Shown here: in pieces, positions 4,329 to 52,300 of the stretch
How positions within the stretch are numbered: position 1 is the stretch's first letter
Layout: each line of letters starts with the position of its first letter
Source: Candidatus Lloydbacteria bacterium RIFCSPHIGHO2_02_FULL_50_18
GTDB lineage: Bacteria; Patescibacteriota; Minisyncoccia; Phycocordibacterales; UBA6899
NCBI GenBank assembly: GCA_001821395.1
Contig: MHLM01000012.1
Location: forward strand, 84,107 to 148,106
DNA length: 64,000 nt
Reading direction: 5' to 3'
The notes under the pieces: generated by a model
Told to the model about the DNA's origin: nothing
What the model saw: the letters and a program-made list of their open reading frames with translations, nothing else
Database searches by the model: none
Program-made: the position numbers and the translations under genes

Positions 4329-4671
4329 GAGCATCCTCCATAAATAGATCCGTTTCCGGGGTGATCCCAATACTTTTGATGATCTGCCCGTTGTCACTCC
4401 GTTCGTTCAGGGTGAAACATACCGTTGCAGTACTGTATCCCACGTGACACTTGCTCAGTTTTCCGAGTAATTTGCCTTGCGCGTAGGCGCTGACTGTTTT
4501 ACCGGTGAGCGTGCAAAGTGCAGTGAGATATTGGTCGTTGCGTGCATGGCCCAAGGCTACCGCACTTAGCTCTTTTGCCAACGGATGTCCCATTTTATTG
4601 AGTACATTGACGGCATTTCGGTATTGTTCCTCACGGTACTTGTGGAGTACGTAGGGAATGGGGAATTGCAT
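4321..4671 (-). CDS. hypothetical protein (116 aa)
   Basis: Clean ORF divergent from fusA. No confident family assignment. Confidence 0.45.
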   Translation of the reverse strand: MQFPIPYVLHKYREEQYRNAVNVLNKMGHPLAKELSAVALGHARNDQYLTALCTLTGKTVSAYAQGKLLGKLSKCHVGYSTATVCFTLNERSDNGQIIKSIGITPETDLFMEDAHV

Positions 4672-4869
4672 TTGCCTCTCCTTGTTTTGATTTTGAACTC
4701 CTGTGTAAAACTATACATAAGATATTGTTCTTGTAAAGATTCTTTGCAGGTTGCTCAAAAGGGGAGTTTTCTATATAGTAACGCCATTAAGTGCCCTTTG
4801 TGGCGTTTTTGTTTACGCGGCAGTTCGCGTTACGGGGAAGATCATTTATTCGTTTTTTATTCACTTTTT

Positions 4870-7017
<2,148 letters not shown>

Positions 7018-28865: not shown

Positions 28866-29477
28866 ATGAACGTCCCAACAATAAAAGAAAAGATAAAGTC
28901 CGCATATCCAAAGCTGAAAGAGAAGCATGGATATAAGAACGTCATGCAGGCACCTAAGGTGGAGAAGGTCATCATTTCCGTGGGCACCGGTAAGATGTCC
29001 CGCAATGACAAGAAGAAGAATGAGTTCGTCGCGAGCCGGCTTGGTATGATCACCGGACAGAAGGCGTCTGCACGAAAGGCAAAACAATCGATCGCTTCGT
29101 TCAAGCTTCGTGAGGGTGATGTCATCGGACAGATGGTCACGATGCGCGGGAGCAAAATGATGGGTTTCCTCGACAAGCTTGTGAACGTGGCTATCCCGCG
29201 TACGCGCGACTTCCGAGGATTCCGTGCCGCCTCGATCGATGCAATGGGGAATTTCACCCTTGGTATCAAGGAGCACACGATCTTCCCTGAGACTGCAGAT
29301 GAAGACCTGAAAGACGTCTTCAGCCTCGCACTCACTGTCGTTCTTTCAACGAGGAACAAGGAGGAGTCCATTGATTTCTTGGAGCACCTTGGTTTCCCGT
29401 TCCGCGAAACTGCGAACGAGGGAAAGAAAAAGAAAGAGAAGAAGGTTGACGCCCCAAGTAAGAAGTGGAAGAAGTAA
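28866..29477 (+). CDS. rplE: 50S ribosomal protein L5 (K-rich C-terminal tail)
   Basis: L5 core (NVMQAPKVEKVIISVGTGK ... FRGFRAASIDAMGNFTLGIKEHTIFPE). Confidence 0.95.
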   Translation: MNVPTIKEKIKSAYPKLKEKHGYKNVMQAPKVEKVIISVGTGKMSRNDKKKNEFVASRLGMITGQKASARKAKQSIASFKLREGDVIGQMVTMRGSKMMGFLDKLVNVAIPRTRDFRGFRAASIDAMGNFTLGIKEHTIFPETADEDLKDVFSLALTVVLSTRNKEESIDFLEHLGFPFRETANEGKKKKEKKVDAPSKKWKK

Positions 29478-29833: not shown

Positions 29834-30202
29834 ATGCAGATCCGCTTTCGGGTTCGCGAACTCGCTTTGGCAATTCGGGAATTTCTCGTCGGTGTCTTTG
29901 TCTTCTTCCGGCGGTCAGTGAAAAGAAGGGATGAAGTACGATATTGCTTCATGTGCCAAGAGTACGGCCATCCGCTTACTAAAGTATCGTTCATGATCCG
30001 CACAGAAGCGCGGAGGGGGGCAAAGAAGGAGGCGCCATTCTCGGTCATGGAACTCCACGTGTGCAGTATGCATCATCCTGACAAGGACGTCGTCGGGGCA
30101 GACCTGTCCGAGGAAACACGATCATTTCTTCGAAACAATGATGCTGCCGCAGCGTGTGTCTACTATTACCATGATCCCGATCATGTTTTCCGCCTCGGAT
30201 AA
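29834..30202 (+). CDS. hypothetical Cys/His-rich protein (122 aa)
   Basis: GAGGT RBS. Its 3' end plus terminator are duplicated at 31107-31179. Confidence 0.35.
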   Translation: MQIRFRVRELALAIREFLVGVFVFFRRSVKRRDEVRYCFMCQEYGHPLTKVSFMIRTEARRGAKKEAPFSVMELHVCSMHHPDKDVVGADLSEETRSFLRNNDAAAACVYYYHDPDHVFRLG

Positions 30203-30216
30203 GAGGTGGTTTTTTT
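30143..30216 (+). repeat. 73-bp direct repeat, copy 1 (includes terminator hairpin ccgcctcggataagaggtgg plus T7)
   Basis: About 93% identical to 31107-31179. Confidence 0.7.
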
Positions 30217-30267
30217 ATACTCCGTACGTTATCCAAAGGTAATTGGACAAAGTAGCAAAAATGCAAT

Positions 30268-31089
30268 ATGGTCAGTACGGAAAAGCTAGCCCCGGGCTCC
30301 ATCGTGGGAATATTCTTTGAGAAGGAACAGTCCATGCAAACAGATAAGACAGACTCGGCTTCTGCAACGCCGGAACAACTCGCGATGCTTACTGGCGAGT
30401 TCGCTCTGGCTCTGGCTAAGGCAAAGCCATCCGCCGCTCTCATGCAGCATCTGCTCCGAAGCAGGGTGGCAACACGGAAGATGATCATCGCGGCCCTATC
30501 GACGCAGGGAAGAATCAGTCACACGATTGATCCTCGCCTCGTGCAGTGTCAAAAGCTATGGGAGAAACTCGGAGTGGTGCTCGACTGCATGGACAATCTT
30601 GTCATGCCGGAAATCCCATCCGGTTGGCGCGGTATCGCCATCATCCCACCACTCACAAATGAAGCACTCCTCGCTCTTTGCAAAAAGCACTTTCCGATAT
30701 GGTCGAAACGCGATGGCCTCGACAATATCTTGAGAGAACAAAATCGACCACGATGCACCTACGTCGTCGTCCATCGTGGTGGTATGGAGCCGGATAAAGA
30801 GCATCGTAATAAGAGTCATGATGATGCGGTCAATGAAGGTTTGTATTTTTTGACGCTGAAGGAGCGTATCTGCATCGAGCTTCTTCATTTCATAAAAACA
30901 GGCAAGCATTTTGATGTTAAGGGGACCATGACAGTCACATCCTCGCTGACGATGGGTGGCGATGCGTTTAATGTGTATTGGAGTTCGCATATTCAGACGT
31001 TCATTGTGGATGGTTGCCGTACGGTGACTTCGTACTCGACGAATGGGCTTCGTCAGGCCGTTTTCTTTGGATTGAAGCCTTACCGTTGA
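30268..31089 (+). CDS. hypothetical protein, paralog of 22912..23760
   Basis: Flanked by the 73-bp direct repeats. The start may be the ATG at 30334 (GAGAAGGAA RBS). Confidence 0.5.
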   Translation: MVSTEKLAPGSIVGIFFEKEQSMQTDKTDSASATPEQLAMLTGEFALALAKAKPSAALMQHLLRSRVATRKMIIAALSTQGRISHTIDPRLVQCQKLWEKLGVVLDCMDNLVMPEIPSGWRGIAIIPPLTNEALLALCKKHFPIWSKRDGLDNILREQNRPRCTYVVVHRGGMEPDKEHRNKSHDDAVNEGLYFLTLKERICIELLHFIKTGKHFDVKGTMTVTSSLTMGGDAFNVYWSSHIQTFIVDGCRTVTSYSTNGLRQAVFFGLKPYR

Positions 31090-31106: not shown

Positions 31107-31179
31107 GTGCCGCAGCGTGTGTCTACTATTATCATGATCCCGATCATGTTTTCCGCCTCGGTTAAGAGGCGGTTTTTTT
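31107..31179 (+). repeat. 73-bp direct repeat, copy 2
   Basis: See copy 1. It ends in ccgcctcggttaagaggcgg plus T7. Confidence 0.7.
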
Positions 31180-31211
31180 ATAAGACAAATTTTTGACTTT
31201 CCTGAAAGTTA

Positions 31212-32267: not shown

Positions 32268-32298
32268 TAACTCGCCGATAATCTCGGCGAGTTTTTTG
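32268..32298 (+). terminator. rho-independent terminator
   Basis: ctcgccga-taat-ctcggcgag plus TTTTTT. Confidence 0.6.
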
Positions 32299-32368
32299 TG
32301 CATTGTTGAATTGCATACTGTTGAGAGCAGTACTATACTTTATGTACATTAATATATATCCTCTCGTC

Positions 32369-35113
32369 ATGTCCTCAACAAAAAGGTTTTTTTCACTGTG
32401 CATGTTTGGCATATTCCTCCTTCCCTCACTCGCCGCTGCTGACACCACCATCTCCTCCAACATCACCACGAATCAAACCTGGACCACGGCAAGCAGTACA
32501 TACATCGTCACCACCGGTATTGCGATCAACGCAGGTGTCACCCTCACCATCAACCCCGGAGTGATCGTGAAGTTCAGCGGGATCATGTCCGGCATCACCG
32601 TGAATGGGACGTTAAACGCCCAAGGAACCGCACTTGCACCGATATACTTCACCTCATACAAAGATGACACCGTGAATGGTGATACGAATGGCGATGCGAC
32701 CTCAACAACCCCAGCCGGGGGCGACTGGTTTTGGTTCTCCATTCCCGCGGGCGGAGCAGCAACGATCGACAACGCGATCATCCGCTATGGCGGCAGTTTC
32801 AATACTGCGCTGTTCTATAATAACGGAGGTAACCTCACCCTTGCGAACTCCGAAGTCGCATCCAGTTCCAAGTATGGCATCTGGACATATTCCGGCATAT
32901 CAACTATCGCTTCTTCCACCATCGATCACAACGCGAGCTACGGTATCTATCATACGGGAGGCACCACTACCGTTGCCACGAGTACGATCCGCGATCACAG
33001 CACCTATGGCTTCTCCACCCAGAGCGGAACTGGAAATCTCATCCTCACCAACAATATCTTTTCCGGTAATCTTCAAGGTGGAGGACTGGTGAACTTGGCC
33101 GACAGTGCAAACGTGACCCATACGAACAACAGTGCAACGGGGCAAGGAAAGGGTGGCATGGTCATCTATGGTTCTCCCAATAAGGCACAGACATGGGGAG
33201 CAGACCCGCTCTTCCCGTATATTATCTCAACGACAACAGGGTCGGTCACCGTGAGTACGTATGCCATCACCCTCAATCCCGGTGCGATCATCAAATTTGA
33301 AGGAACAACCGCAGGGTTTGCGGGCAATTCAGGCACCTTCACTGCCGCGGGAACTACACAATCTCCCGTATATTTCACCTCCATCAAGGACGACACCGTG
33401 GGTGGCGACACCAATGGGAATGGCACGGGTACCACTCCATCTGCGGGGGATTGGGATGGTCTCATGTCCCAGAACTATAGCAATCTCACGTTGAACAATA
33501 CCGTGATCCGCTACGGTGGCTCAAAGATGCTCTATGCCAACGGTGTGAACAGCGTCATCAACCTATTCAACTCAGAAGTTGCCAGCAGTTCAAGTGCGGG
33601 AATCTATAGTGATGCAGGAACAGTGAATGCCACCGGTACGAGCATTCACGACAATCGCTACGGCTATTATCACGGCAATGTCCAAGGCAATAGCATTGCC
33701 CACATTGCCAATGCCGGCAACACCATCTATCGCAATAGCACCTATGGTATTTATAACAATGGAACCGCCCTCGTGAATGCCGAGCAGGTATACTGGCCGG
33801 CGACAACAACGGGAGCGACGATGAATGGGCCGTATAGTACAAGCACCAACCCAGGGGGGCATGGAGATGCTGTGCTCCCCACATACATCGACTTTGATCC
33901 TTGGCTCTCTACCGTGTCAGGAAATATCGCAACGAATACCACGTGGACTGCTTCGAGTACATATGTCATTGATGGAACGCTCACGGTGAATGCGGGGACG
34001 ACACTCACGATTCCTGCAGCTACGGTGGTGAAGTTTGCCAATGCAACCTCAAAGATCAGCGTCTCGGGGAGCTTGGTTGCAGATTCTGCAGCGTCTTCCT
34101 CACGAATATATTTCACGTCAATCAAGGATGATGCGGTGGGAGGGGATACCAATGGAGATGGGGGTGCGACTTCACCTGCTGCGGGAGATTGGGATGGGAT
34201 CAAAGTGAATGCGGGAGGCGTTGCAACACTGAACTTCATTTCTGCTCGCTATGGAGGAAGTGGTGGGCCCATGCTTTGGAACTATGCAGGAACGTTGGAT
34301 CTTAATAATTCAGAAATTGCGAGCAGTAGTAATACGGGAATCTTCCATTCCTCGGGTGCCACGCAATTAATAGTTCGAGCTTGTGATATTCACAACAATA
34401 ATTATGGCATATTTGTTGACGACAGCTCGCTTGTGACAATCGGCAGCAACAATATTCATGGCAATGTTGTGGGAGTAAATGATAATACTTTTTTTGGGAT
34501 TGATATTAGATATAACTATTGGGGTGATGCAAGTGGCCCATATAATTCTGTCTATCACCCGACTGGGACCGGTGATACCATCGTTGAGAATGCGTTTACG
34601 CTTGTTTCTCCATGGTTAGACAGGGTACATTATTTGTATTTCTTAAACCACAATTTGGTTACTTCGATTACCAGTGGAGTATTGGATTGGAATTGGTTCA
34701 ACGGCACATCTACTTATGCGACGGCTTGGTATGCAGGAGTTAACACATGGAACACATATGGAAATTCGGTTGGAGGAGTTACTTTTGCAACAAGTACCAC
34801 GGCAACATCCTCAGCTGATTTACTCGTTTTGGACATGGCTAGCTCATCTAGTGATTTATTCTATGCCATCTACGACCCCTTTGTTACTCCTACGGAAATT
34901 AAATTTAACCCTTATTATATGAACACTGCAACTGCTAATATAAGGCAAATGACCACAACTCATGAACTTGGTCATGCCCTAGGGCTTTGGCACAGTTATA
35001 TAAACAACATCATGATTGCATCCCCAGCTTCAACTACTGGTCAGGTTTCACTGGGCACTCAAGATATGTTGGATTACGATTATTGTTGGGTGAGTCATAA
35101 TTGTGGGATATAA
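32369..35113 (+). CDS. secreted beta-helix repeat protein with C-terminal metzincin-type zinc protease motif (914 aa)
   Basis: Signal peptide MSSTKRFFSLCMFGIFLLPSLAAA. Three modules of about 250 aa each end in (I/A)RYGGS and carry repeated NSEVASSS, IYFTS(I/Y)KDD, GDTNG and GDWDG motifs. C-terminal THELGHALGLWHS matches HExxHxxGxxH. Confidence 0.6.
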   Translation: MSSTKRFFSLCMFGIFLLPSLAAADTTISSNITTNQTWTTASSTYIVTTGIAINAGVTLTINPGVIVKFSGIMSGITVNGTLNAQGTALAPIYFTSYKDDTVNGDTNGDATSTTPAGGDWFWFSIPAGGAATIDNAIIRYGGSFNTALFYNNGGNLTLANSEVASSSKYGIWTYSGISTIASSTIDHNASYGIYHTGGTTTVATSTIRDHSTYGFSTQSGTGNLILTNNIFSGNLQGGGLVNLADSANVTHTNNSATGQGKGGMVIYGSPNKAQTWGADPLFPYIISTTTGSVTVSTYAITLNPGAIIKFEGTTAGFAGNSGTFTAAGTTQSPVYFTSIKDDTVGGDTNGNGTGTTPSAGDWDGLMSQNYSNLTLNNTVIRYGGSKMLYANGVNSVINLFNSEVASSSSAGIYSDAGTVNATGTSIHDNRYGYYHGNVQGNSIAHIANAGNTIYRNSTYGIYNNGTALVNAEQVYWPATTTGATMNGPYSTSTNPGGHGDAVLPTYIDFDPWLSTVSGNIATNTTWTASSTYVIDGTLTVNAGTTLTIPAATVVKFANATSKISVSGSLVADSAASSSRIYFTSIKDDAVGGDTNGDGGATSPAAGDWDGIKVNAGGVATLNFISARYGGSGGPMLWNYAGTLDLNNSEIASSSNTGIFHSSGATQLIVRACDIHNNNYGIFVDDSSLVTIGSNNIHGNVVGVNDNTFFGIDIRYNYWGDASGPYNSVYHPTGTGDTIVENAFTLVSPWLDRVHYLYFLNHNLVTSITSGVLDWNWFNGTSTYATAWYAGVNTWNTYGNSVGGVTFATSTTATSSADLLVLDMASSSSDLFYAIYDPFVTPTEIKFNPYYMNTATANIRQMTTTHELGHALGLWHSYINNIMIASPASTTGQVSLGTQDMLDYDYCWVSHNCGI

Positions 35114-35124
35114 CATTGAAAACC

Positions 35125-35853
35125 ATGAACAAAGATATAAAAGATATAATAATCCTTCTTACTGCACTCCTGCTCTCTGCCATCGTCATTGCTGGAATAT
35201 ATTACAGAGCAAAAAGAATACCCGAAGAAACTCCAGGAACCTTGAAAAGATATCAGCTCCAAGGAACACCTGATCATCCGGCGATGTTTTATCCTACCGA
35301 TCTGACTAAAGATATAAACCTATTGGGCTCATCTCATGATGTTTTCATAGGAAAAGTCATTTCTCAAACTGGTGACAAAGAAACTCAGATTGGACCACGC
35401 ACACAATATTCGGTGGAAGTTATTGATAATATTAAGGGTAAGTTAAAAGATATTGTAACCATTGACATGCTGGGTGGTTATGACAAAGATGGCAAGTTGG
35501 TAGTAATCGAAGAAAATGATTCAACTGATTTTCTCCTTAAACCAGGCTCAACTTACCTCTTTGCTACCCGTTATAACGAAGAAGAGGATTGGTATACTCT
35601 AATTTCTCACCCGAATGCTCGAAAAATTATAAGTACAGATAACACAAAAAATGAAGCCGCTCTCATGGCTCTCATCGACCAAGACGAAAAGGTAAAATCC
35701 TTTGAATCCGCATACGCCCATGAAGTTCTCCTCGACGCCGACATCGCCCACGGAAATACTCGTAACTCCTTCCAGTCTCTCGCACCAGCGGAAAAAGCCG
35801 CCGCCCAATCCCGCGCTGATGCGGCAAGAGCCTTGCTTGAGGCAATGCAGTAA
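35125..35853 (+). CDS. hypothetical N-terminally membrane-anchored protein
   Basis: MNKDIKDIIILLTALLLSAIVIAGIYY TM anchor. Its 5' region is duplicated at 36093-36276. Confidence 0.45.
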   Translation: MNKDIKDIIILLTALLLSAIVIAGIYYRAKRIPEETPGTLKRYQLQGTPDHPAMFYPTDLTKDINLLGSSHDVFIGKVISQTGDKETQIGPRTQYSVEVIDNIKGKLKDIVTIDMLGGYDKDGKLVVIEENDSTDFLLKPGSTYLFATRYNEEEDWYTLISHPNARKIISTDNTKNEAALMALIDQDEKVKSFESAYAHEVLLDADIAHGNTRNSFQSLAPAEKAAAQSRADAARALLEAMQ

Positions 35854-36092
35854 GATGCTTCTGCGGGGGTATACTTATTTGTGAACACAACGGCTCATGA
35901 ACAAAAAAATACTAAAATACACACTTGTCATCTTTGGGATATTCCTGCTCGGAGGCGTCGCGTTGTCGATCCATTTGTTCATCCAAAGTAAATTTGGTGT
36001 TTACGCTCCTCTAGATCGCGGATTTCCGGTAAGGACATTCCATCCAACGGGTATTAGTATTGATCAACCCAGCATTTGAATGGATACCTATC

Positions 36093-36276
36093 ATAATTGT
36101 GGGATATAACATTGAAAACTATGAACAAAGACATAAAAGATATAATGATTCTTCTTATTGCACTTCTACTCTCCATCGTCGTCATTGCTGGAATATATTA
36201 CGGAATAAAAAGTACTCAAGGAACTGTAGTTTCAACATATTCTCATCAGGGAACGCCTGAAAATCCGGCAATGTAG
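36093..36276 (+). pseudogene. truncated duplicate of the 35096-35290 junction (gene fragment encoding MNKDIKDIMILLIALLLSIVVIAGIYY...)
   Basis: About 80% nucleotide identity over about 185 bp. It includes the last 20 nt of the upstream gene (HNCGI stop) and the first 51 codons of the downstream gene, then a stop. Confidence 0.4.
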
Positions 36277-36791
36277 AATTTCATAGAAAACAATAATTAT
36301 GGAAGCTCTAAAAAATGAATTAAAGAAAACAATGGTCGTATGGAGAGATGCGTTAATCTGAGAAAAAAGATTTGCTAATCTGAAAAAGCTATTCCTCGTT
36401 ATTTTGGGTGTGGCTGTGTTTATCATTATCTTTCCGATGCCAACGAGGTGCAGGATAGAAAATCATGGAGCATATAGGCCGGCTAACGATTTAGTAATTG
36501 GTGCATACGTGGTTCGTGATTGTTACCCACCAAACCGTGCTGAATTTTGGCAGAACCCACAATTGAGTTTTGAATTTCGCTGGTTATTTGTTCCCACGTT
36601 AGACAGTATAACTGGTCATCGAGGTGTCAGTGTAATAAATATCCATCTATAAGGTAATCCCACATTCGCGTAAGCAATAAAAACTGCTACAAGGCGGGTC
36701 TTTGTTTTTTGTCTGGGCTATTCCTCGCGAGCACTAAGGTGTTCGCATATTGCTGGTCTGCGATAATCTAGTCTTATATAATAGACTCATA

Positions 36792-37214
36792 ATGAAACAA
36801 AATATACTCCTCGCGCTTACTGTTGCGGGCTTACTTTTCTCGGGTTATCTCGGCGGACTGAAGTTGTTTTCCGACACGTGTGCATTTAACGAGACATGCG
36901 CGACATTTTTAGGGTACCCGACGTGTTATTACGGCTTTGCGATGTACCTCTTGATCTTTGTCCTTCTTCTCGCGTCGCGTTTCGGGAAGATGGGCGTTTC
37001 CCGCGCTCGGTACGGAGTAGCCGGTATCTCTTTTGCGGGCATTCTTTTTTCCGGATATTACAGTTTCCGCGAGTTATCAACTCTTCTTCGTGGGGATATT
37101 TCCGATTTTTTGCTCGGATTGCCGACCTGCGCATACGGATTCATCATGTATGTGGCTATTTTGGGCTTTGCGTTGTCATCGATACGAGAAATTCAAAAGA
37201 AGAAGTTGAACTAG
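36792..37214 (+). CDS. hypothetical 4-TM membrane protein with internal duplication (PTC(Y/A)YGF motif twice)
   Basis: The two halves share FSGY...G(Y/L)PTCxYGF(A/I)MY. The ATG at 36792 follows a terminator-free AT-rich leader. Confidence 0.45.
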   Translation: MKQNILLALTVAGLLFSGYLGGLKLFSDTCAFNETCATFLGYPTCYYGFAMYLLIFVLLLASRFGKMGVSRARYGVAGISFAGILFSGYYSFRELSTLLRGDISDFLLGLPTCAYGFIMYVAILGFALSSIREIQKKKLN

Positions 37215-37423
37215 CTGCTATTTTGCAGAAAAATTGAGATATTTTATTCTGTGTCGTCACAAATTGACAGTCGTTGAGCCATTTGTTAGTATCCAAGCAC
37301 GTTTCTTTTGATCCGCCTTTCTCCTTTTTGACCCCAAATCTTGGGAGCAAGAAGAAAACAGGCGTGATATTGAAAGGGCGTATTATGTCCGACCGCGTCG
37401 AGGTTGGTATTTATCTATTTATT

Positions 37424-37606
37424 ATGGCAAAAAAATCAACAATTGCACGACAACTCACCCCGAAATTTCCGGGTCGAGCAGTCAATCGCTGTTTTAAGTG
37501 CGGGCGAAAACGCGGCTATATGAGAGCTTTCGATCTCTGCCGTATCTGTTTTCGTGAATTAGCAAACGAGGGAAAGGTCCCCGGAATAAAGAAATCATCA
37601 TGGTAA
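37424..37606 (+). CDS. rpsN: 30S ribosomal protein S14 type Z (zinc-ribbon form)
   Basis: [10 protein letters not shown]...[38 protein letters not shown] includes a CxxC...CxxC ribbon. Confidence 0.9.
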
Positions 37607-43056: not shown

Positions 43057-43260
43057 ATGTCGATACAGTCAACAGTTCGATATGAATGTGAGCAAGAACA
43101 GGTGAGTGTTCGCTCTGCTTTTGATGTGTTCGTCGCGGAACTGGATGCTATCGATCAGGAGCATGAACTCTTGCTTCAGGATGCGGTGCAGATATTAGAA
43201 GAGCGGGCTGTGAACAAACTCCGTGCACAGATAAGTAATCCCTTTCAACATGGAACCTAA
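43057..43260 (+). CDS. hypothetical small protein (67 aa)
   Basis: ORF immediately after map. It overlaps the start of the next gene by 11 nt. Confidence 0.35.
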   Translation: MSIQSTVRYECEQEQVSVRSAFDVFVAELDAIDQEHELLLQDAVQILEERAVNKLRAQISNPFQHGT

Positions 43261-44644
43261 CGAATTTCCATCGGATGAATTGCAGCCCTCCGCCTACCAT
43301 CCCGAAGAAACAGCGGAGTCGGCAGACCTTTCTCTACTTGAGGATGCTCTCTACCCTGAGGAAAACACTGAAAATGCTGCAGCAGCAGCGGTTGTAGGAG
43401 AGCATGAGGCTATGGCGCTCCGGCAATCGGAGCGAGATCTATCGCAGGAGATAGTCACGCTCCAAGAAAAATTTGAAACGTTGCTCAAGGAGAGCGAGGT
43501 GGAACTATCGCTTGGTGCGAGCAGTCTTGATGCGTCTGCGCATGCGTTTGGTTTGGATGCTGCTGAAAAAAATGAAGCGCTTGAAACGATAGGGTGGAGC
43601 GCTCGCGAGCAAGATCTCCGAGAGCGTCTGCATCAAAGCACCGAGCGATTAGCTAAAGCACTAAGAGAAGGCGCGGGGGTTGTGTCGACTGCTTTTGTGC
43701 TCGGTATTTCAACTCCTGCGTATGCTGAAACGCCCACCGCGCCACTCGAGTCGCTCACCCGAGCGAGTGTTGCTACAGAGACGGGGGAACGGAGCCCGCT
43801 TCCGTCGTACGAGGAGGTGAAAGAACAATTCCGCGCATCAGCACTCATCGCCCTGACAGAAGAGCGAGCGGTCTTTGTGCGGACAAAGGACGGCGAACCA
43901 ATGAAGACGATGATACTCACGAAGGGGAAGTCCGTGTCGGTGGGATTTTCTGATACTGAGCTGAAGGAGCTTTCTGCCGCAATGAAGTCGAGCACGGCGG
44001 AGATCGAAGACGTGCATACTCATCCGATCAATGCCTTAAAGGCCGTCGGCTTGATCAGCGGGGAGGATGCCGACAAGATGGTCCGCGGCGAACTAGCGCC
44101 TGCTTCTGCGGAGCCGTCATCGCAGGACTGGAACATTCTTTTTATGAATGATGAGACCTATAATTTTCCTCCTGGGCAGATGTCTCAACGCGTGATCGAT
44201 GCCACAGGTGAGTGGACGCAGGGAATAAGCGACAGCGGCTCTCCATTCATCGTCGGCATGCGCAAGGGGATGAAGGAGCTGAAACAGATCGGACTAGACG
44301 GCTTTGATCTCACTGCTGACGAGAAAGCGTATCTGGAAGAGAGCATCGCCCAAGATGAGACCTCGTTCCATGCGCTTCAGAAGATCATAAACAGTGATAG
44401 TGTCGACCCTCTTGCGAGTGCGACACGAAAGAAACTGGTAAATGGCATAGGGAAGGTGATGAGTAAATATGTTTCTCTTGAAGATGTGAGAAAATATAGT
44501 GAGCTGACGGAGCCGCGCTCCGCAGCAATGAATAGGGAGGAGCGGAAAGCCCGCGTGCTTCGCATGGAGGAGCTTGCCCCCCTGCTTGGTTTTCGGCTGA
44601 AATACACGCCGCATGAGGTTCCGCCGGATGCTACAGTTAAATAA
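43250..44644 (+). CDS. hypothetical protein (464 aa) with one predicted TM/signal-anchor segment
   Basis: Acidic N-terminus and a hydrophobic GAGVVSTAFVLGISTPAYA segment. The stop is 3 nt before the next start. Confidence 0.5.
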   Translation: MEPNEFPSDELQPSAYHPEETAESADLSLLEDALYPEENTENAAAAAVVGEHEAMALRQSERDLSQEIVTLQEKFETLLKESEVELSLGASSLDASAHAFGLDAAEKNEALETIGWSAREQDLRERLHQSTERLAKALREGAGVVSTAFVLGISTPAYAETPTAPLESLTRASVATETGERSPLPSYEEVKEQFRASALIALTEERAVFVRTKDGEPMKTMILTKGKSVSVGFSDTELKELSAAMKSSTAEIEDVHTHPINALKAVGLISGEDADKMVRGELAPASAEPSSQDWNILFMNDETYNFPPGQMSQRVIDATGEWTQGISDSGSPFIVGMRKGMKELKQIGLDGFDLTADEKAYLEESIAQDETSFHALQKIINSDSVDPLASATRKKLVNGIGKVMSKYVSLEDVRKYSELTEPRSAAMNREERKARVLRMEELAPLLGFRLKYTPHEVPPDATVK

Positions 44645-44646
44645 TA

Positions 44647-45927
44647 TTGAACGCCTTATATCATATGGAACGATCCGAGAGACAATGTGAATCATCAAGA
44701 GCAACAACCACCGAAGGACGACCCTCCGTCCCCGAGGATGCGCCGAAGCTCGCAGACTGGATCGAGGAAGAACTCGGAGATACGGAGCTTGCGGATTTTT
44801 TGCGCGCGCATCCGGAGGGAGTGGAACTTCTCTCGAACGGAGAGGCGATACTGCCACACACGGTATTTGATGTTGTCGAAGATCTTATTGATGCAGACCC
44901 TGCGTTTGCTCAAGAACTTGCCTGCACACTGGATCGGGAGCGACTTTTTCCCGAACTTTCATATCAGAAGGGGGTGGGGAATGTGACTGAGGAGGAGGTC
45001 GCTGATGCATTCAGAGAAAGAAAATTCATTGTCGCACGAGATCGCACTGCACTACATGAGGGTCAGGTGGAAATGAGTGAAGTTGATCGGCACATTACCC
45101 ATGCTGCGAATATTGCGCTTTCTCAGCTGAGAGAAATATACGGACTCCCTGAATTTACTGTTCCTGACGAAGCCGTACGCATCATTTTCGGAACCGACGA
45201 CGTATTTGTCCATGAATCGGGGAAACCACTGACGGCTTCTTTTTCACAAGGACTGCAAAACGTGTATTTCCCGGAGGATGCAAATGTTAAACAGCGTCTG
45301 AACAGTATATTTCACGAATTCACCCATTTTCATTCCTACGGTTCATTTCAGGTGGACCGTATGCAAGATGGAGGTTCTGCGACAAGCGACTATCGCGTTG
45401 GGCTAAAGGTCCGAGCGCGACAAGTGAAGGGCTCGCCAACCACCGCCTATCTTGAGTCGCTCAATGAGGCGGTCACCGAAGAAACCGCAAATCGTCTTTG
45501 TCGCGATATCTCTGAGGATGACCCCGATCTTGGTATGTTTGCGAAAGATGGACATGACTTTTCAAAATACATCACTGAGGAATATCCGGAGATGCTCACG
45601 GAGGGCAACTTGCGTCCATATTGGATCAGCTACGGGAAAACAAAAGAAAATGGTGATGTTCCGGTCTTTTCCTCATATGCAGAAGAAAGAAATGTGATGT
45701 TTGATATGTTCAAAAAGATCTACGAGAGAAATCCGAACCTATTCGACGGGAAGTCTCCCGATGAAGCAGAGAATGAGCTTTTTGAGATGCTGCAAAAAGC
45801 CATGTTCACCGGCAACATCCTTCCTTTTGGCCGGTTATTCAATGACACATTCGGTCGGGGGAAATTTCGTGAGTTTGGACACTTACAAACGATCGGGGAG
45901 CAGCAGTCTTTTGTCGAAGGGCTGTAG
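44647..45927 (+). CDS. hypothetical protein with HExxH motif (candidate zincin-like metallopeptidase)
   Basis: IFHEFTHFH in an otherwise unrecognised 426-aa soluble protein. Confidence 0.5.
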   Translation: MNALYHMERSERQCESSRATTTEGRPSVPEDAPKLADWIEEELGDTELADFLRAHPEGVELLSNGEAILPHTVFDVVEDLIDADPAFAQELACTLDRERLFPELSYQKGVGNVTEEEVADAFRERKFIVARDRTALHEGQVEMSEVDRHITHAANIALSQLREIYGLPEFTVPDEAVRIIFGTDDVFVHESGKPLTASFSQGLQNVYFPEDANVKQRLNSIFHEFTHFHSYGSFQVDRMQDGGSATSDYRVGLKVRARQVKGSPTTAYLESLNEAVTEETANRLCRDISEDDPDLGMFAKDGHDFSKYITEEYPEMLTEGNLRPYWISYGKTKENGDVPVFSSYAEERNVMFDMFKKIYERNPNLFDGKSPDEAENELFEMLQKAMFTGNILPFGRLFNDTFGRGKFREFGHLQTIGEQQSFVEGL

Positions 45928-46048
45928 GGCATTTCCTGCTTCGTCCGCCGCGCTGTAGGACCATCGCGTGCTATTGATGCTGAACACGCGGTTTTCTGCT
46001 GAAATACACGCCACATCCATCTTTCTCAAGCGCTGCTGTGCGGATAAT

Positions 46049-46079
46049 CTTACTCACGTGACAGAATGTGTTATATAAT
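46049..46079 (+). promoter_or_regulatory. sigma70-type promoter (TTACTC ... tgtTATATAAT) for the ATPase gene, near-leaderless
   Basis: TATAAT at 46074-46079 lies 9 nt upstream of the ATG at 46089. Confidence 0.4.
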
Positions 46080-46088
46080 GAACATTCC

Positions 46089-49000
46089 ATGGAGCATCAT
46101 GAAGGACAATTTGAGTCACCCAAGTTTTCTTCGCCGGAAGAAGAGCTGAAGTATCTGCGTGAGCGCGTCGCGCAAAAGGAGCAACAGTTGTGGCAGGAGC
46201 AGGAGCCCGTACAAAAAGAATCAGTGATCTCAGGTCAGGTCCTTGAATATGCAGAGTCGTCACCCGCAGCAAGACTGGAAGAGCACATGATCATCGAAAA
46301 TCCGCAGTTCGAGACGGTAGTTGAGCACTTGAGCTCCCTTCCTCATCGTGAGAAAGTGCGCGAACTATATCGTATCCTTGCCGAAAAAGGCGTCTTGAAT
46401 GCGATCAACGTCGCGCGGGCGCAGAATAATCCGCATATTGAAGAAGACTTCCATCGTGTGCTTGTTGAATATGTAAAGACGGGCGTTCTGGTTCCCGGTC
46501 TTGATAAGGAGAGGGAGCTTGCCAAGGAATTACGTATGACCGTGTTTGAGGTGACTCTTCCCTACGCCGGAGCACAGGAAGGTGTTACACTTGCATCATT
46601 TCATGACGTCGTGACCGCAATGGAGCGCTTTTATATCGGCATGATCCCTCCACCCGGTTCCTCCGCAGCACCGTATGGTCCGATTGCACTCGAGCTCGTG
46701 TTGTCTAATTTTTCAAGTGATATTGTTTTCTTTATCACCGTAGAAGAGCACATGAAGGATCTTTTTGTGAAGCAGATCCTCGGCTCATTCCCCACGGCGA
46801 AGATCGAAGAGTGTCCCGGTGACTTTAATATCTTCAATGAATTCGGTATTTCGGTGGCATCCTATGCTGAACCATTGGGAAATTTTATCTATCCGATACA
46901 ATTAATGGAGGAGGCAGAGAAGGATCCGCTCACGACCATCCTTAATTCTTTCACGAAGATCGAGAGGAACGGTGAGGGTGCCGCAATCCAGATCATACTT
47001 TATCCTGATACCGGAAATATCGACGGAAAGATCAAGTACGGCATCCATCAGTTGGGACAACACGTTCCCGCGTCTCGCGCCACGAATATCCCTCTTTCTA
47101 CGGGGGGTGTCATCACTAAATCGCTGACGGAATTTTTTCATACTCAGCTGAAGACCGAGAAAAAGGATGAGGCCACGCAGGCAAAGGAAGCAGAAACGAA
47201 TGCGAAAGCAAAAGAACTCATGGAAGAGAAGATCAAGGCACCGCTCATCCGGGCAAATATCCGCATCGTTGCTTCTTCGACGACGCGTGAGCGTGCCGAA
47301 ATGATTCGCATGTCGATAGAGGCGGCGTTCAGTCAATTCAATCGACCGCAAGCGGGAGGGGTCAAGTTCACGAAGACGGTGAATAAAAAACTTGAAGAGT
47401 TGCTCCATCATTTTACCTATCGCGAGGTGAACGACAGTGAGGCGCTTATCTTCAATTCAAGAGAACTTGCATATCTTTACCATCTTCCGCTTACGGTATC
47501 TCAAAAGGATGCACCACAACTGAAGACCGTACAGGCATCATCCGCTCCCGCGCCGGCTGACTTGCCGCATGAGGGGACATTGATCGGCGTCAACAAGTAT
47601 CGCGGTGAGTCGCGCGAGATACGGCTAACGAAGGCGGACCGCCTGCGGCATCTCTATACGATCGGACAAACAGGAACAGGGAAGTCCGTCTTCCTCAAAA
47701 ATCTTGCGGTCCAGGACATTTTGGCCGGGAATGGCGTCTGTTTCATTGATCCGCACGGTTCCGACGTACAGGATGTGCTTGCGGCTATACCAAAGGAGCG
47801 CATCGATGACGTGATCTATTTTGATCCTTCCTACACGAAGCGGCCATTTGCACTGAATATGCTGGAATACGATGTTGACCATCCCGAGCAAAAGATCTTT
47901 GTCGTGAATGAAATGCTTGCGATATTCAAGAAACTCTACTCCTCGAGTCCTGAATCAATGGGTCCCGCTTTTGAGCAGTATTTCAGAAATGCGACAATGC
48001 TCGTGATGGAGGATCCTGAAAGCGGGAACACGCTGCTTGAGATACCGCGCGTGCTTGCGGATCCCGCATTTCGCAATCTCAAACTATCGCGTTGCAAGAA
48101 CCCCATTGTGGTGCAGTTCTGGAGAGATATAGCAACGAAGACATCGGGCGAATCCGGTTTGCAGAACATGATTCCCTATATCACCAATAAGTTCGACGTA
48201 TTCATCTCGAATGACGTGATGCGTCCGATCATCGCACAGGAGAAATCCTCGTTCAATTTCCGCGATATTATGGACAACAAGAAGATCCTTCTGGTGAATC
48301 TCGCAAAAGGCAGCCTTGGGGAGATGAATGCAAATCTCCTTGGGCTCATCATTATCGGAAAATTCCTTATGGCGGCAATGTCGCGCGTTGATTCATTCGG
48401 AAAATCGCTTCCTGATTTTTATCTGTACGTCGATGAATTCCAGAACATCGCTACTCCATCGATCTCGGCCATCCTCTCTGAGGCGCGCAAATACGGACTC
48501 TCACTCAATCTTGCTCATCAATTCATCGGTCAACTTCCCGAAGACATCAAGGCGGCAGTTTTTGGTAATGTCGGCAATATGGTGGTGTTCCGCGTCGGCA
48601 CCGAAGACGCGCAGTTTCTGGAGTCTCAGTTTGCGCCGATATTCAAGGCGTCTGACATCATGAAGATCGAGAATCGCAATGCCTATGCGAAGATCCTGAT
48701 TAACGGAAAGCCGGTATCTCCGTTCAATGTCGAAATGCTTCCACCGCCCGAGGGGCACCCCGAAGTTGTTGAGCAGCTGAAGAATCTGTCTTATCTGAAG
48801 TACGGACGGGACCGAAAGATCGTCGATGATGCAATATTGAAACGTTATATGTCCGCGCAACAAAATCCTCAGCCCGCAGGCGTGGCGGCAGTGAGATCAG
48901 TCACACCGATAGCTTCGGTACCCGTCCAATCCGGAGCCGTCGCCCCGGTTCAGTCACAAATTCTTCGTCCGGTCGTTATGTCGGCACCTCTTTCGGTTCC

Positions 49001-49265
49001 CACAGTTCCGGTAAGTGTCCCTCCAGCAACGGCAGTCGTTCCGTTTCCAGCAGTCCCGTTGCCGTCCAGTCCCGTATCTCCTCTCAATACTGCGCCACAA
49101 GCCACAACGCAGTTTGCGCAAGCATTCGTGCGTGCGGATCAAGTGGCACCCTCGAACGTTTCACTCTCTCTACCCGAGATGCCCGCATTCAAGATGGCTG
49201 AGGAGCCGGACAACAAGGTCCCCCCAGTCCCTGGAGCTTTTGGCAGTGTATTTTCCCAAAAATAG
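46089..49265 (+). CDS. HerA/FtsK/TraD-VirD4-superfamily P-loop ATPase with large N-terminal domain and Pro/Val-rich C-terminal tail (1059 aa)
   Basis: Walker A IGQTGTGKS and Walker B LYVDEFQNI precede the LNLAHQ sensor. About 470 aa of unassigned N-terminal sequence. The ORF track began at a GTG at 46068. Confidence 0.65.
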   Translation: MEHHEGQFESPKFSSPEEELKYLRERVAQKEQQLWQEQEPVQKESVISGQVLEYAESSPAARLEEHMIIENPQFETVVEHLSSLPHREKVRELYRILAEKGVLNAINVARAQNNPHIEEDFHRVLVEYVKTGVLVPGLDKERELAKELRMTVFEVTLPYAGAQEGVTLASFHDVVTAMERFYIGMIPPPGSSAAPYGPIALELVLSNFSSDIVFFITVEEHMKDLFVKQILGSFPTAKIEECPGDFNIFNEFGISVASYAEPLGNFIYPIQLMEEAEKDPLTTILNSFTKIERNGEGAAIQIILYPDTGNIDGKIKYGIHQLGQHVPASRATNIPLSTGGVITKSLTEFFHTQLKTEKKDEATQAKEAETNAKAKELMEEKIKAPLIRANIRIVASSTTRERAEMIRMSIEAAFSQFNRPQAGGVKFTKTVNKKLEELLHHFTYREVNDSEALIFNSRELAYLYHLPLTVSQKDAPQLKTVQASSAPAPADLPHEGTLIGVNKYRGESREIRLTKADRLRHLYTIGQTGTGKSVFLKNLAVQDILAGNGVCFIDPHGSDVQDVLAAIPKERIDDVIYFDPSYTKRPFALNMLEYDVDHPEQKIFVVNEMLAIFKKLYSSSPESMGPAFEQYFRNATMLVMEDPESGNTLLEIPRVLADPAFRNLKLSRCKNPIVVQFWRDIATKTSGESGLQNMIPYITNKFDVFISNDVMRPIIAQEKSSFNFRDIMDNKKILLVNLAKGSLGEMNANLLGLIIIGKFLMAAMSRVDSFGKSLPDFYLYVDEFQNIATPSISAILSEARKYGLSLNLAHQFIGQLPEDIKAAVFGNVGNMVVFRVGTEDAQFLESQFAPIFKASDIMKIENRNAYAKILINGKPVSPFNVEMLPPPEGHPEVVEQLKNLSYLKYGRDRKIVDDAILKRYMSAQQNPQPAGVAAVRSVTPIASVPVQSGAVAPVQSQILRPVVMSAPLSVPTVPVSVPPATAVVPFPAVPLPSSPVSPLNTAPQATTQFAQAFVRADQVAPSNVSLSLPEMPAFKMAEEPDNKVPPVPGAFGSVFSQK

Positions 49266-49354
49266 TCTTTAAGTGTCGAAGAATTTCGCTGAAACGTACT
49301 GTTTTTTCGGCATCTTTGCTACAATAAGTTGGCTAACGGGCGCGGAAAATATCT

Positions 49355-49384
49355 TTTGACAAAGTACAAAATTATTGATATAAT
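49355..49384 (+). promoter_or_regulatory. perfect consensus sigma70 promoter TTGACA-N18-TGaTATAAT driving a leaderless mRNA of the giant gene
   Basis: TTGACA at 49355-49360, TG at 49376-49377, TATAAT at 49379-49384. The ATG at 49391 is 6 nt after the -10 hexamer. Confidence 0.6.
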
Positions 49385-49390
49385 GATAAT

Positions 49391-52300
49391 ATGAACGAAT
49401 TTCCTGAAGACATTAAGGTGCAAGGGGAGACGGTTGAAGCGCGCGGTCTGCGCTGGAAAACGGAAGAAGACGATCTGCAGCGCTTGCTTCTGGAAAATAA
49501 TGTTTCGACTGAGGCGTCGGATATGTTGATTGACCAGCTTGCCCGGAAACATCGGACGGAGGAAGAGAACAACGACGTCTTTCCGACCATGGATGATTTC
49601 GACCGCTATGAAAGGGCGATGTCTTTTGGCACATCTGAACGGGGAGAGGATGTATCACCCGCACAAAATGAACCACCTGCCGCGATCGAAGCCGTTGCGA
49701 CGATCGTTGAACGTGAAGAAGAGGATAAGCCCGGGCAACTGTCACAAGAGATGAAGGAGGCGCTCGTGAGAGAATTGAATACGACCAAAGACGAGATCGA
49801 TCAGGCGTGGAGTGTCATTCGCGTCTATGGCGGTGAGAAAAAGGACGGCATCATTCCCGAAAAAAGAACGTACACTGAAGAAGAATTCTTGAATGCAAGG
49901 AGAACATACGATCAATTGCGTACGAAGGCGAAAGAGTTGGCGCTTGAAGTAGCCGGAGGAGAGCAGCTCTTTGGTGCGGTCAAGATTCCCGATCTTGTGG
50001 TGATGGATAGTTATAACGAGAAGGTTTCAGCGAGGACGAGGGATGAGCGTAAAGTAAGGGAGCGTGCACTCCCAAAAGAGGAACGAGATGCATATTACGA
50101 TGCGCTTGCTCGTAAGCGAGCGTTTGTGCAGGCGCTTACCGATAACGGCGTGCGAAAGGATATGGCACTTGGTCTCTATGGCGAGTTCGCCGACAAAGCG
50201 ATCGCTCTTGATAAGTTTTCGCAAGTGCTTGAACATGAATTGAAAGAGGGAGATGCGCCGAAGCTCTCGGGGGGACGAGAATACCATCTGCTGAAGTGGC
50301 ATGGCATCAAAGAAGGTTCGTCGTGGGATGAGATCGCGGCACAGGTCCATGCGCTGCTTGATGCATATCATACCGTTCCTCCTCATGTGGAACGCGTGCG
50401 CGAAGAAGTGCCATCATTAGTACCTCTTATGGATGCAAAGGAGGCAGGGGTCGTTCCCACTACTCAGTCACATGCCGATACTGCAGGAATACCGAGCGCA
50501 CCTTTTTCCGAAATGGATGAGCAGTTTCCGTCCGATGCCGGTGCGGTGGACGAGGCCGTTCCACAGGAGGTGATCGATGGGTGGAAAGAACAGGGCATCA
50601 TGATCAAGCCGGGCACGACGGGAGCGGAGTTAGGAACGATATTGCGAAATGTTGGTGGCGCACGCGGGATGGAATCGATTGCAGCGACCCAAGCGCAGGT
50701 TGAGCTTACGGAGATTGCTCCGGTGGAAGAGACCGACTCGGTCGTACTAGCTCCATTGGTGACTACCGATACAGAGACACCGGCAGAAACACCTATTGAA
50801 GAGGAGGCATTACCTCCCCCGATCGAGGCTGTCGTGTCGGCTCCTTCAGGTGTGGAGGATGTTTTGCCACAAGTGGAGATAAGTCCCGAGCAGCAATCAC
50901 TCACACCGCTATCGTGGGAAGAGGTTGATGCGCAGATGGCAGGTTCTGATCTTGAAGTAGTACAACATGCACGAGCTGAATGGGAGCGGCGGACAAATGC
51001 GGCATTAGCATACAGTAAAGAAAAAGGCACGTTTGGTGCTCTGCGGGAAACTCTGCGTACGATCAGGGATGGTTTTGGTAATACGATCCCCGAAAAATGG
51101 TTGAAAGAATTTCATGAAGTCCCCGATGTGGCACGATATTTGCGCGAACATCCGATTGCCGAGGGAGTCAGTGCCGCGCCGGAAGTTGTTACGACGGTAT
51201 TGTCGAATAAGCAGCTCGAGGATATGGCTGAGGCCGGTCAGTGGGATAACAAAAAAGATACGACTGCAGAGACGGAGTTTGAGATGCGTGAAGGCGGGAA
51301 GAAGAATAAAGAGAATATCTTTCTTGAGAAAGCGATCAGTGCGTTCCGTGCTACCCCGAGTATGGATTTTGCGATGGTCAAGGCCGCGATCGATGCCGGC
51401 AATAAGCCGACAAGTGAAGTGATCGGGGATCTTCTTGCGCGAGGACTCGTCACGCTGACTCCCCCGGGGACATATACATGGGTTGAGACTGCCGATGCGC
51501 CTGAAATTTCCGTCATTCCTGAAACGGAAGCTCTGGATATTCCTTTCATTCCAACTATTCCTACGATCCCGCAGCCGGTGGTTCCTGCCGCATCGCTACC
51601 TGTTGTACCAGAATCTATTCCTCAACTGACACCGCTCCATGAAGCTCCCGCTACGCTCTCTTCCTACGATGCAGCTCTTGAAGAGCAGTGGAACGCACGG
51701 GATAAAAAATTTCAAGCGCCTGACTGGGAGCTTGTTCCGATGGAAAAAGCGGAGTCTGAAGCATCTCCTCAATTAACCGCGGAAGAAGAAAAAGAACTGA
51801 ATGAGGTTGGTACATTATGGGCTTCATTTCTTGATCGTGAATACGGGCTTGATATCGAGGGAAAAGAAATTGCGCCGATTACCGAGGAGGCGGTCATTGC
51901 AAACGGGGAAGCGTTGGAGACACTTGCACTTACTTCAGGTTTACCGGAAGAGGCACTTGGACGTGTCCAAGCCGCGGAAGCGGTCGGCGACACCGTTCCC
52001 GGCGATGTCACATATCAGTTCGAAAGAAAATTCGGAGTGAGCGGAGCAATGCTCGAAAGGATAGCGTCATTCAGCGGCCTCTCGGCCGGGCAGCAATTAC
52101 TTGTCCTCAAAAATCTCGAGCAGCTTACACTTACTGATATCACCAAAGAGGCAAAAGCAAAACAGCAGGCGGAATGGGGAAATACGAAGTGGTGGAAAAG
52201 AGGACTGCAGATGATCGCATCTCTCGGCATGAAGCCGGAGTATCGCACCGCAGAGCTCGAAAAAGAACTGCTCGCAAAAACACAAGAGTCAAAAGCACAG

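Follow-up and report, generated by a model that had tools for sequence, protein, structure and literature searches.

The window analysed here is a 64,000-nucleotide stretch of the genome of Candidatus Lloydbacteria bacterium RIFCSPHIGHO2_02_FULL_50_18 (contig MHLM01000012.1, positions 84,107 to 148,106). It encodes a secreted protein with a beta-helix region and a C-terminal metzincin protease domain, followed on the same strand by a gene for a small membrane protein, hereafter the partner. The analysis revealed that the conserved unit of this locus is the protease domain together with the NTR-fold partner, the beta-helix being one of several N-terminal modules. As an explanation of the whole, we propose, with a probability of roughly 0.6, that a surface-directed protease is restrained by a cognate inhibitor or immunity protein tethered to the membrane.

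32369..35113, + strand: gene for the 914-aa secreted beta-helix/matrixin-like protease, a real open reading frame (ORF) from ATG to TAA
35125..35853, + strand: partner gene, encoding a 242-aa predicted single-pass membrane protein with an NTR/TIMP-like ectodomain (TIMP, tissue inhibitor of metalloproteinases)

An identical 914-aa product (P0001) is predicted from two public contigs, one from JGI groundwater and the other from a Logan assembly. The two genes have the layout of a two-gene operon: the partner begins 11 nt past the protease stop, no terminator-like hairpin was found between the genes on the + strand, and one precedes the first gene.

Linkage of the protease domain to its partner

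In every homologue locus examined, the beta-helix/metzincin gene is followed by a partner homologue of 33–55% identity. A partner-profile search yielded 20 GTDB loci, 19 with names of the Patescibacteria or Candidate Phyla Radiation (CPR) type and one labelled Clostridia; upstream sequence was available for 19 of the 20. An ORF matching the metzincin hidden Markov model (HMM) was located directly upstream, on the same strand, in 16 of these 19. Among metagenome contigs, searched from the protease domain, the partner was immediately downstream in 7/8 assessable full-length members, and it was found at none of the seven metagenome loci that matched the HExxH region only. It was likewise absent beside beta-helix relatives ending in an M23 or LCAT-type lipase domain. 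Natural fusions (P0384 and P0385; 13 sequences on many contigs, about 360 aa) combine a signal peptide, the metzincin, a linker and the partner domain in one chain. The two linkage counts, the partnerless M23 and lipase loci and the fusions are the grounds on which protease domain plus partner is regarded as the conserved unit.

What precedes the catalytic domain can be exchanged: it is a beta-helix, ConA-like lectin domains, FN3 or nothing. At three partner loci the protease is bare, i.e., a signal peptide and catalytic domain of 158–164 aa from the first ATG; the remaining upstream proteases carry Laminin_G_3 lectin domains, FN3 plus beta-helix, or beta-helix modules. The cassette is found in CPR bacteria, Firmicutes, a Mycobacterium prophage and metagenome contigs, human-gut ones included. 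Tandem protease–partner pairs occur at two of the GTDB partner loci; tandem pairs were noted at L005, L010 and L022.

The initial annotation of this DNA, made from the letters and their reading frames, had overlooked both the conserved downstream TIMP-fold partner and the interchangeable N-terminal modules, and had drawn attention to the gene on the other side. Two signals lie between that gene and the protease:

32269..32293, + strand: terminator-like hairpin after the M50 gene and before the protease gene (10-bp stem with 6 GC pairs, then a T-run)
32321..32350, + strand: promoter-like site TTGAGA-18-TACATT upstream of the protease ATG (9/12 matches in a consensus scan, which is weak evidence)

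The upstream gene is, as had been stated, a genuine M50 peptidase (PF02163, E = 3.5e-17). A functional link between the two was considered and rejected, given the hairpin between the genes and an adjacency that is not conserved: no M50 gene lies upstream of the homologues P0002, P0004 and P0017, and we therefore regard its presence here as incidental. That the window protein is a stand-alone adhesin or host-matrix protease acting with the adjacent M50 intramembrane protease would suit the real neighbouring gene and the resemblance of the beta-helix to Ag43-type adhesins, but it is extremely unlikely, as the conserved neighbour is the downstream gene.

Architecture of the protease

32369..32440, + strand: Sec-type (signal peptidase I, SPI) signal peptide, aa 1–24, predicted cleavage AAA/DTT, after AAA (read from the sequence)
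32441..33166, + strand: beta-helix module 1, aa 25–266, with the loop KDDTVNGDTNGD...GGDW (motifs, BLASTP, AlphaFold2 (AF2); the Pfam Beta_helix match spans 129–271)
33167..33904, + strand: beta-helix module 2, aa 267–512, ending in a low-confidence cap/linker (466–512) with YWP...GPY...DPWL (motifs, BLASTP, AF2)
33905..34627, + strand: beta-helix module 3, aa 513–753, with the C-terminal cap NYWGDASGPY...SPWL (motifs, BLASTP, relatives, AF2)
34628..35110, + strand: minimal matrixin-like metzincin domain, aa 754–914, ~160 aa (MMP-1 profile match, Foldseek matches to matrix metalloproteinases (MMPs), Pfam M10)
34961..34993, + strand: zinc motif HELGHALGLWH (H865, E866, H869, H875), then S876 (motif scan)
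35012..35014, + strand: Met-turn methionine M882 (NIM), at least 90% conserved in 36 relatives (alignment A2)
35084..35104, + strand: Cys pair C906...C912 (CWVSHNC) at the C-terminus, shared with some relatives and probably closing a disulfide loop

The C-terminal domain is, by profile comparison and structure prediction, a divergent, minimal matrixin-like metzincin. This assignment follows from three results. When a catalytic-domain profile was compared with the PDB, the best match was MMP-1 (E = 6e-7), running from helix A past the Met-turn into helix C. All 36 relatives matched Peptidase_M10 (PF00413) at E < 0.01, the best at 6.4e-9. Finally, Foldseek aligned the catalytic region of the full-length model with MMP catalytic domains by the dozen (MMP-3, -7, -12 and -13 among them), at probability 1.00 and with template-modelling (TM) scores of 0.55–0.68 relative to the target. 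The window protein itself scored 23.3 bits against Peptidase_M10 with the domain alone and 20.0 with the full protein, below the cutoff of 24.

The HExxHxxGxxH site named in the initial annotation is borne out as HELGHALGLWH at 865–875 and falls within this predicted zincin fold. In the AF2 model helix A (784–801) is followed by a small sheet, the active-site helix (856–870) and a C-terminal helix (897–907). H865, E866, G868 and H869 are invariant in alignment A1, and all three zinc-ligand histidines and the catalytic glutamate are invariant in A2. A Met-turn follows the third histidine in the segment HSYINNIM, with M882 seven residues past H875.

Like vertebrate MMPs (MEROPS M10A), the window protease has HExxHxxGxxHS, including the matrixin-type serine after the third histidine (HS at 875–876), a Met-turn and the matrixin fold. 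Unlike them, it carries no cysteine-switch propeptide (PRCGxPD was not found in the window protein) and lacks the conserved second-zinc/calcium S-loop residues, no invariant or near-invariant His or Asp occurring from W54 to H125 of alignment A2. On account of these two absences it is not filed as a canonical M10A matrixin. In the bare relatives the signal peptide leads straight into the catalytic domain, again with no propeptide. An MMP-like gene clade in CPR/Parcubacteria has already been noted, with no mention of an inhibitor (PMC12587646); a literature search combining CPR, beta-helix and metalloprotease found no paper.

N-terminal to the catalytic domain lie three homologous modules of ~245 aa (25–266, 267–512, 513–~753). 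Modules 1 and 3 are the most alike (BLASTP E = 9e-41, 48.5% identity across 171 aa); the other pairs gave E = 5e-26 (modules 1 and 2) and 5e-29 (modules 2 and 3). The motif periodicity described earlier is largely sustained, each motif occurring once per module: [IV]YFTS[IY]KDD[TA]V[GN]GDTNG at residues 92, 334 and 580, GDW at 118, 360 and 606, [IA]RYGGS at 138, 380 and 626, and NSE[VI]ASSS at 160, 401 and 647. The part that does not hold is G[VAT]TLTI, which is limited to modules 1 and 3 (56, 543), module 2 having a degenerate YAITLNPG. A loop of ~25 residues in each module, DDxVGGDTNGDG...GDW, appears to resemble calcium-binding DxNxDG loops.

The claim of a right-handed beta-helix was upheld by family model, structure prediction and structural comparison. 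Pfam Beta_helix (PF13229) scored 74.6 bits against a cutoff of 25.9 (E = 8.9e-21). The AF2 model of the 914-aa protein, with 23 relatives as input, has a mean predicted local distance difference test (pLDDT) value of 81.8 and a low predicted TM score (pTM) of 0.54. It shows unbroken short-strand rungs in two stretches, ~26 to ~460 and 513 to ~705, with pLDDT mostly >85 over 25–460 and 513–705. As the low-confidence cap/linker at 466–512 interrupts the rungs, modules 1 and 2 appear to form a single helix and module 3 a separate one in this model, their mutual orientation being of low confidence (pTM 0.54).

Against the PDB, Foldseek matched the beta-helix of the model to alginate lyases of family PL6 (E = 2e-6) and to autotransporter adhesins of the Ag43 type, and also listed a GH87 glucanase. 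With PL6 lyases as top matches, the beta-helix might itself be catalytic, a polysaccharide lyase or hydrolase that would make the protein bifunctional. We consider this very unlikely: the Foldseek matches have 9–13% identity and a whole-chain TM score <0.2, a PDB sequence search with the region gave no match at E <= 1, and in relatives the same modules carry diverse catalytic domains (metzincin, M23, LCAT-type lipase, RHS), as a scaffold would.

The signal peptide noted at the outset stands as well. Its n-region is MSSTKR, its h-region FFSLCMFGIFLLPSL, and AAA precedes the aspartate of the predicted mature end; homologues have equivalent N-termini, e.g., ...SPALA cut before DTT, and residues 1–22 have low pLDDT in the AF2 model. 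The only cysteines of the 914-aa protein are C11, C672, C906 and C912.

The partner, its counterparts and the proposed mechanism

35146..35202, + strand: partner transmembrane anchor, aa 8–26 (hydropathy scan; AF2 helix 3–30)
35290..35634, + strand: partner NTR/OB-like core, aa 56–170, starting with conserved Y56-x-x-D59 (AF2, alignments; OB, oligonucleotide/oligosaccharide-binding)
36091..36276, + strand: truncated copy of the junction between protease 3' end and partner 5' end, i.e., transmembrane segment and linker, then a stop (122-nt repeat, alignment, ORF 36097–36276)

AF2 modeling of the partner (pLDDT 90.3) predicted a transmembrane helix (3–30), a floppy low-confidence linker, a beta-barrel (72–170) and C-terminal helices. 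This OB-type barrel with flanking helices is the arrangement of the NTR fold, and the model aligned over 106–116 residues versus ~75 for generic OB folds. Foldseek against BFVD with the partner model gave generic OB folds only and was uninformative. At the sequence level, the Pfam, NCBIfam and PHROGs copies searched contain no match or family for the window partner, and a PDB profile search found no TIMP/NTR chain at E <= 10, returning only two chance-level matches. The family is large nonetheless: an exhaustive profile search found 1,662 representatives at E <= 1e-3 (clusters at 50% identity).

A hydropathy scan detected an N-terminal transmembrane segment in 50/55 partner relatives, and flanking Lys/Arg counts favoured an N-in/C-out topology in 29 members of the family and the opposite in eight. 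In a cross-phylum alignment V73, V78, T93, K104 and F146 are invariant, and an aromatic-x-x-D/N segment stands just before the barrel, at the published Listeria cleavage region. With few exceptions, the NTR domain in this alignment is either tethered, through a transmembrane helix or a lipobox Cys, or covalently fused to the protease. One CPR partner, a 461-aa ORF (L015 4519–5901), has two tandem NTR-like domains. The 122-nt repeat downstream of the window partner is 89% identical to 35095–35216, which comprises the last protease codons and the partner 5' end; 36091–36276 is probably the remnant of a decayed second cassette.

The pairing of a bacterial metzincin with a TIMP-like protein is already known, as are bacterial MMP-like enzymes. 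In Listeria, a secreted metzincin, Mtz, is accompanied by a TIMP-like lipoprotein, Tim; Mtz-dependent cleavage removes about 50 residues from the N-terminus of Tim, and the phenotypes require active Mtz (PMC8235301). A tblastn search of phage records gave weak protease-domain and partner matches, adjacent in one Listeria-labelled record. In hhalign comparisons with the Listeria Mtz/Tim-like pair, the protease matched at 99.1% (E = 1e-18) and the partner at 97.8% (E = 1e-12), and the CPR partner HMM matched a Listeria 'cell surface protein' at E = 2e-20. The species of this Listeria partner family are exactly the sensu stricto set listed for Tim (PMC8235301). The published LTAC lipobox and AIMLD Met-turn strings were not found among the retrieved Listeria sequences, and for this reason the identity of the compared records with the published LMRG_00713/714 is probable but unproven. 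The window pair resembles Mtz–Tim in gene order, adjacency, homology of both proteins, a membrane-tethered partner and the segment at the cleavage region. It differs in that the CPR protease has a beta-helix extension of ~730 aa, the CPR partner is anchored by a transmembrane helix rather than a lipobox, and the CPR locus is chromosomal, set among ribosomal-protein genes of one operon, where prophage genes were not seen.

A second counterpart is encoded by Mycobacterium phage prophiGD12-2, whose gp80 (protease) and gp79 (partner) matched in hhalign at 98.2% and 95.2% and are annotated as 'meltallopeptidase' and 'meltalloproteinase inhibitor' (sic). Gene order and overlap are the same as in the window; unlike the window pair, gp80/gp79 is prophage-borne beside lysis genes, the N-terminal region of gp80 differs (PHROG 35557) and gp79 is of the lipobox type. 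PHROGs holds no family for the Listeria Tim-like protein or gp79, and NCBIfam and Pfam gave nothing on the phage-type partners.

The best functional analogy for the window pair is the KLIKK-peptidase/potempin system of Tannerella forsythia, where PotA, an OB-fold membrane-anchored lipoprotein, is co-transcribed with the MMP-like karilysin, inhibits it and shields the outer membrane of the producing cell (PMC9890683). In both systems the gene of a bacterial MMP-like protease is paired with that of a small membrane-anchored beta-barrel protein. In contrast to the window, the potempin gene lies upstream of the protease and potempins are outer-membrane lipoproteins; the likeness drawn here is a functional one.

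The locus also shares features with polymorphic toxin/immunity systems (PMC3482391): a repeat scaffold with variable C-terminal enzyme domains (metzincin, M23, lipase, RHS), a small downstream cognate gene specific to the C-terminal domain, and tandem and decayed copies. Unlike these toxins, the window protease has a Sec signal only, no markers of type V, VI or VII secretion systems or other delivery routes having been identified, and the protease–partner cassette also occurs free of a scaffold. The words 'TIMP', 'metzincin' and 'OB-fold' do not occur in the 2012 survey of polymorphic toxins (PMC3482391). At one locus, a 126-aa gene with no Pfam match begins 4 nt after a beta-helix + LCAT-type lipase gene (L029 10376–10756); perhaps it encodes a cognate partner of another kind, one that goes with the lipase domain.

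As a rule, the latency of metzincins has to be controlled (PMC8235301). The window protease has neither prodomain nor cysteine switch, and it is therefore that the tethered NTR protein is proposed as its inhibitor or immunity protein. The Sec-secreted protein consists of a long beta-helix scaffold whose C-terminal end bears a minimal matrixin-like zinc endopeptidase lacking a propeptide, and the partner is a predicted type-II membrane-anchored protein with its NTR/TIMP-fold domain facing outward. The beta-helix is probably a rigid stalk or binding module, as in relatives its modules are joined to other enzymes that attack envelopes; it would steer the protease to a target surface, e.g., the envelope of the host cell on which this episymbiont relies. 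Tethered to the surface of the producing cell, the NTR protein would bind the catalytic domain, providing latency and self-protection. Inhibition would proceed by a cysteine-free mechanism, perhaps via the aromatic-x-x-Asp segment before the barrel.

Several points weigh against this explanation. No protease was found at 3 of the 19 partner loci. In Listeria, the only relative studied, Tim has been reported as a substrate released by Mtz, inhibition not having been demonstrated there (PMC8235301), and inhibition in the present pair is something we infer. The window partner has two Lys/Arg on the N-side and four on the C-side of its anchor, which alone do not fix its topology. The window partner has no cysteine, nor have 47 of 55 in its family, hence no Cys1/CxC and no disulfides, and the canonical zinc-chelating Cys1 wedge of TIMP is therefore impossible. 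Together with these features, the window partner differs from vertebrate TIMP in lacking sequence similarity and in being membrane-anchored; in view of the missing Pfam and PDB similarity to TIMP/NTR, its resemblance to TIMP could be convergent on an OB-type barrel.

The homology of both genes to the Listeria pair, the Mtz-dependent trimming of Tim and the need of the phenotypes for active Mtz would also suit a partner that is a substrate: the protease would cut the linker, and the released soluble NTR fragment would be active, e.g., on cell-wall properties, without being an inhibitor. The CPR partner has its conserved aromatic-x-x-D at the equivalent position, after a low-confidence linker. 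We hold this to be unlikely, considering that the Listeria records differ in motifs from LMRG_00713/714 and that fusions and tethering across lineages fit a stable association at least equally well. Substrate release and inhibition may coexist, the two models being compatible.

A partner that is only a docking receptor, retaining the protease on the producer surface and leaving its activity unaffected, is distinctly less probable. Such a role would agree with a protease that by sequence has no transmembrane segment or lipobox and with a membrane-tethered partner co-transcribed with it, as the gene layout indicates. It accords poorly with Firmicutes tim homologues that have an SPI signal peptide and no lipobox and are thus unanchored (PMC8235301), with protease–partner fusions, in which anchoring is not the point, and with the presence of the partner after the catalytic domain even in bare enzymes of ~160 aa.

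The preferred explanation, a protease held in check by its tethered partner, also has a bolder form, which is quite unlikely: a tight-binding, cysteine-free NTR inhibitor that would place the aromatic-x-x-Asp segment, or an N-terminus made by cleavage, in the zinc site, and a widespread MMP/TIMP-like module of bacteria, CPR episymbionts above all. If true, the module would possibly be linked in evolution to animal MMP/TIMP and would form an effector/immunity system at the interface of CPR symbiont and host. TIMP evolution has been traced inside Metazoa (PMC10755359).

What is notable in the present locus is the beta-helix fusion, the cysteine-free NTR partner anchored by a transmembrane helix, and a large partner family for which the copies of Pfam, NCBIfam and PHROGs that were searched have no model. 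A matrixin-like protease and a TIMP-fold protein here make up a conserved two-gene, sometimes fused, module across bacteria and prophage. The locus points CPR biology to a concrete surface system, in which a protease on a stalk, fitted with a safety catch, could act on the envelopes of hosts. To the study of proteases it contributes a TIMP-fold protein free of cysteine, the mechanism of which can be addressed directly.

Genomic setting

The protease gene lies in a block of ~7.9 kb (6–7 genes) between rplE (ends at 29477) and rpsN (ends at 37606) of the ribosomal spc operon. Terminator-like hairpins follow the L5 gene, both ORFs that come next and the M50 gene, and a strong promoter-like site (37264–37292; 10/12 matches plus TG) stands ahead of S14. 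The same split layout of the spc operon is repeated on the JGI contig L001. The island splits a ribosomal operon and contains internal repeats, although no integrase or tRNA was found in it; Rfam and tRNA scans of the window gave nothing.

A 27-nt imperfect repeat (78%; 29400–29426 and 37550–37576) flanks the island and encodes the same peptide in the C-terminal tail of L5 (FRETANEGK) and at the C-terminus of S14 (FRELANEGK). It could be a scar of insertion or recombination, or chance; as evidence of insertion it was set aside, its length being too small to tell from chance. A 75-nt direct repeat, 96% identical (30145–30219 and 31108–31182), comprises the 3' end of ORF 29834–30202 with its terminator hairpin and recurs after ORF 30268–31089. 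Neither ORF has a Pfam match.

Downstream of the cassette, a VKOR-like membrane protein is encoded at 36750–37214 (24.2 bits, under the cutoff of 27.5), and at the P0004 locus (L005 8018–9925) genes for DsbD_TM and thioredoxin are found immediately upstream. A C-terminal CW...C pair is common to the closest proteases, and there may be a disulfide-handling link with these VKOR/Dsb neighbours.

Elsewhere in the window, a cluster of large ORFs (43250–54622) includes a TraG/VirD4-like coupling protein (46068–49265, PF12696), ORFs of 464 and 426 aa with no Pfam match and a 1743-aa ORF (49391–54622), likewise with no Pfam match. EF-G (4585–7017) is 810 aa long, and the 188-position GTP_EFTU model is stretched across its residues 104–386, a spread that implies some ~100 additional residues at the N-terminus and a large insert within the G-domain.

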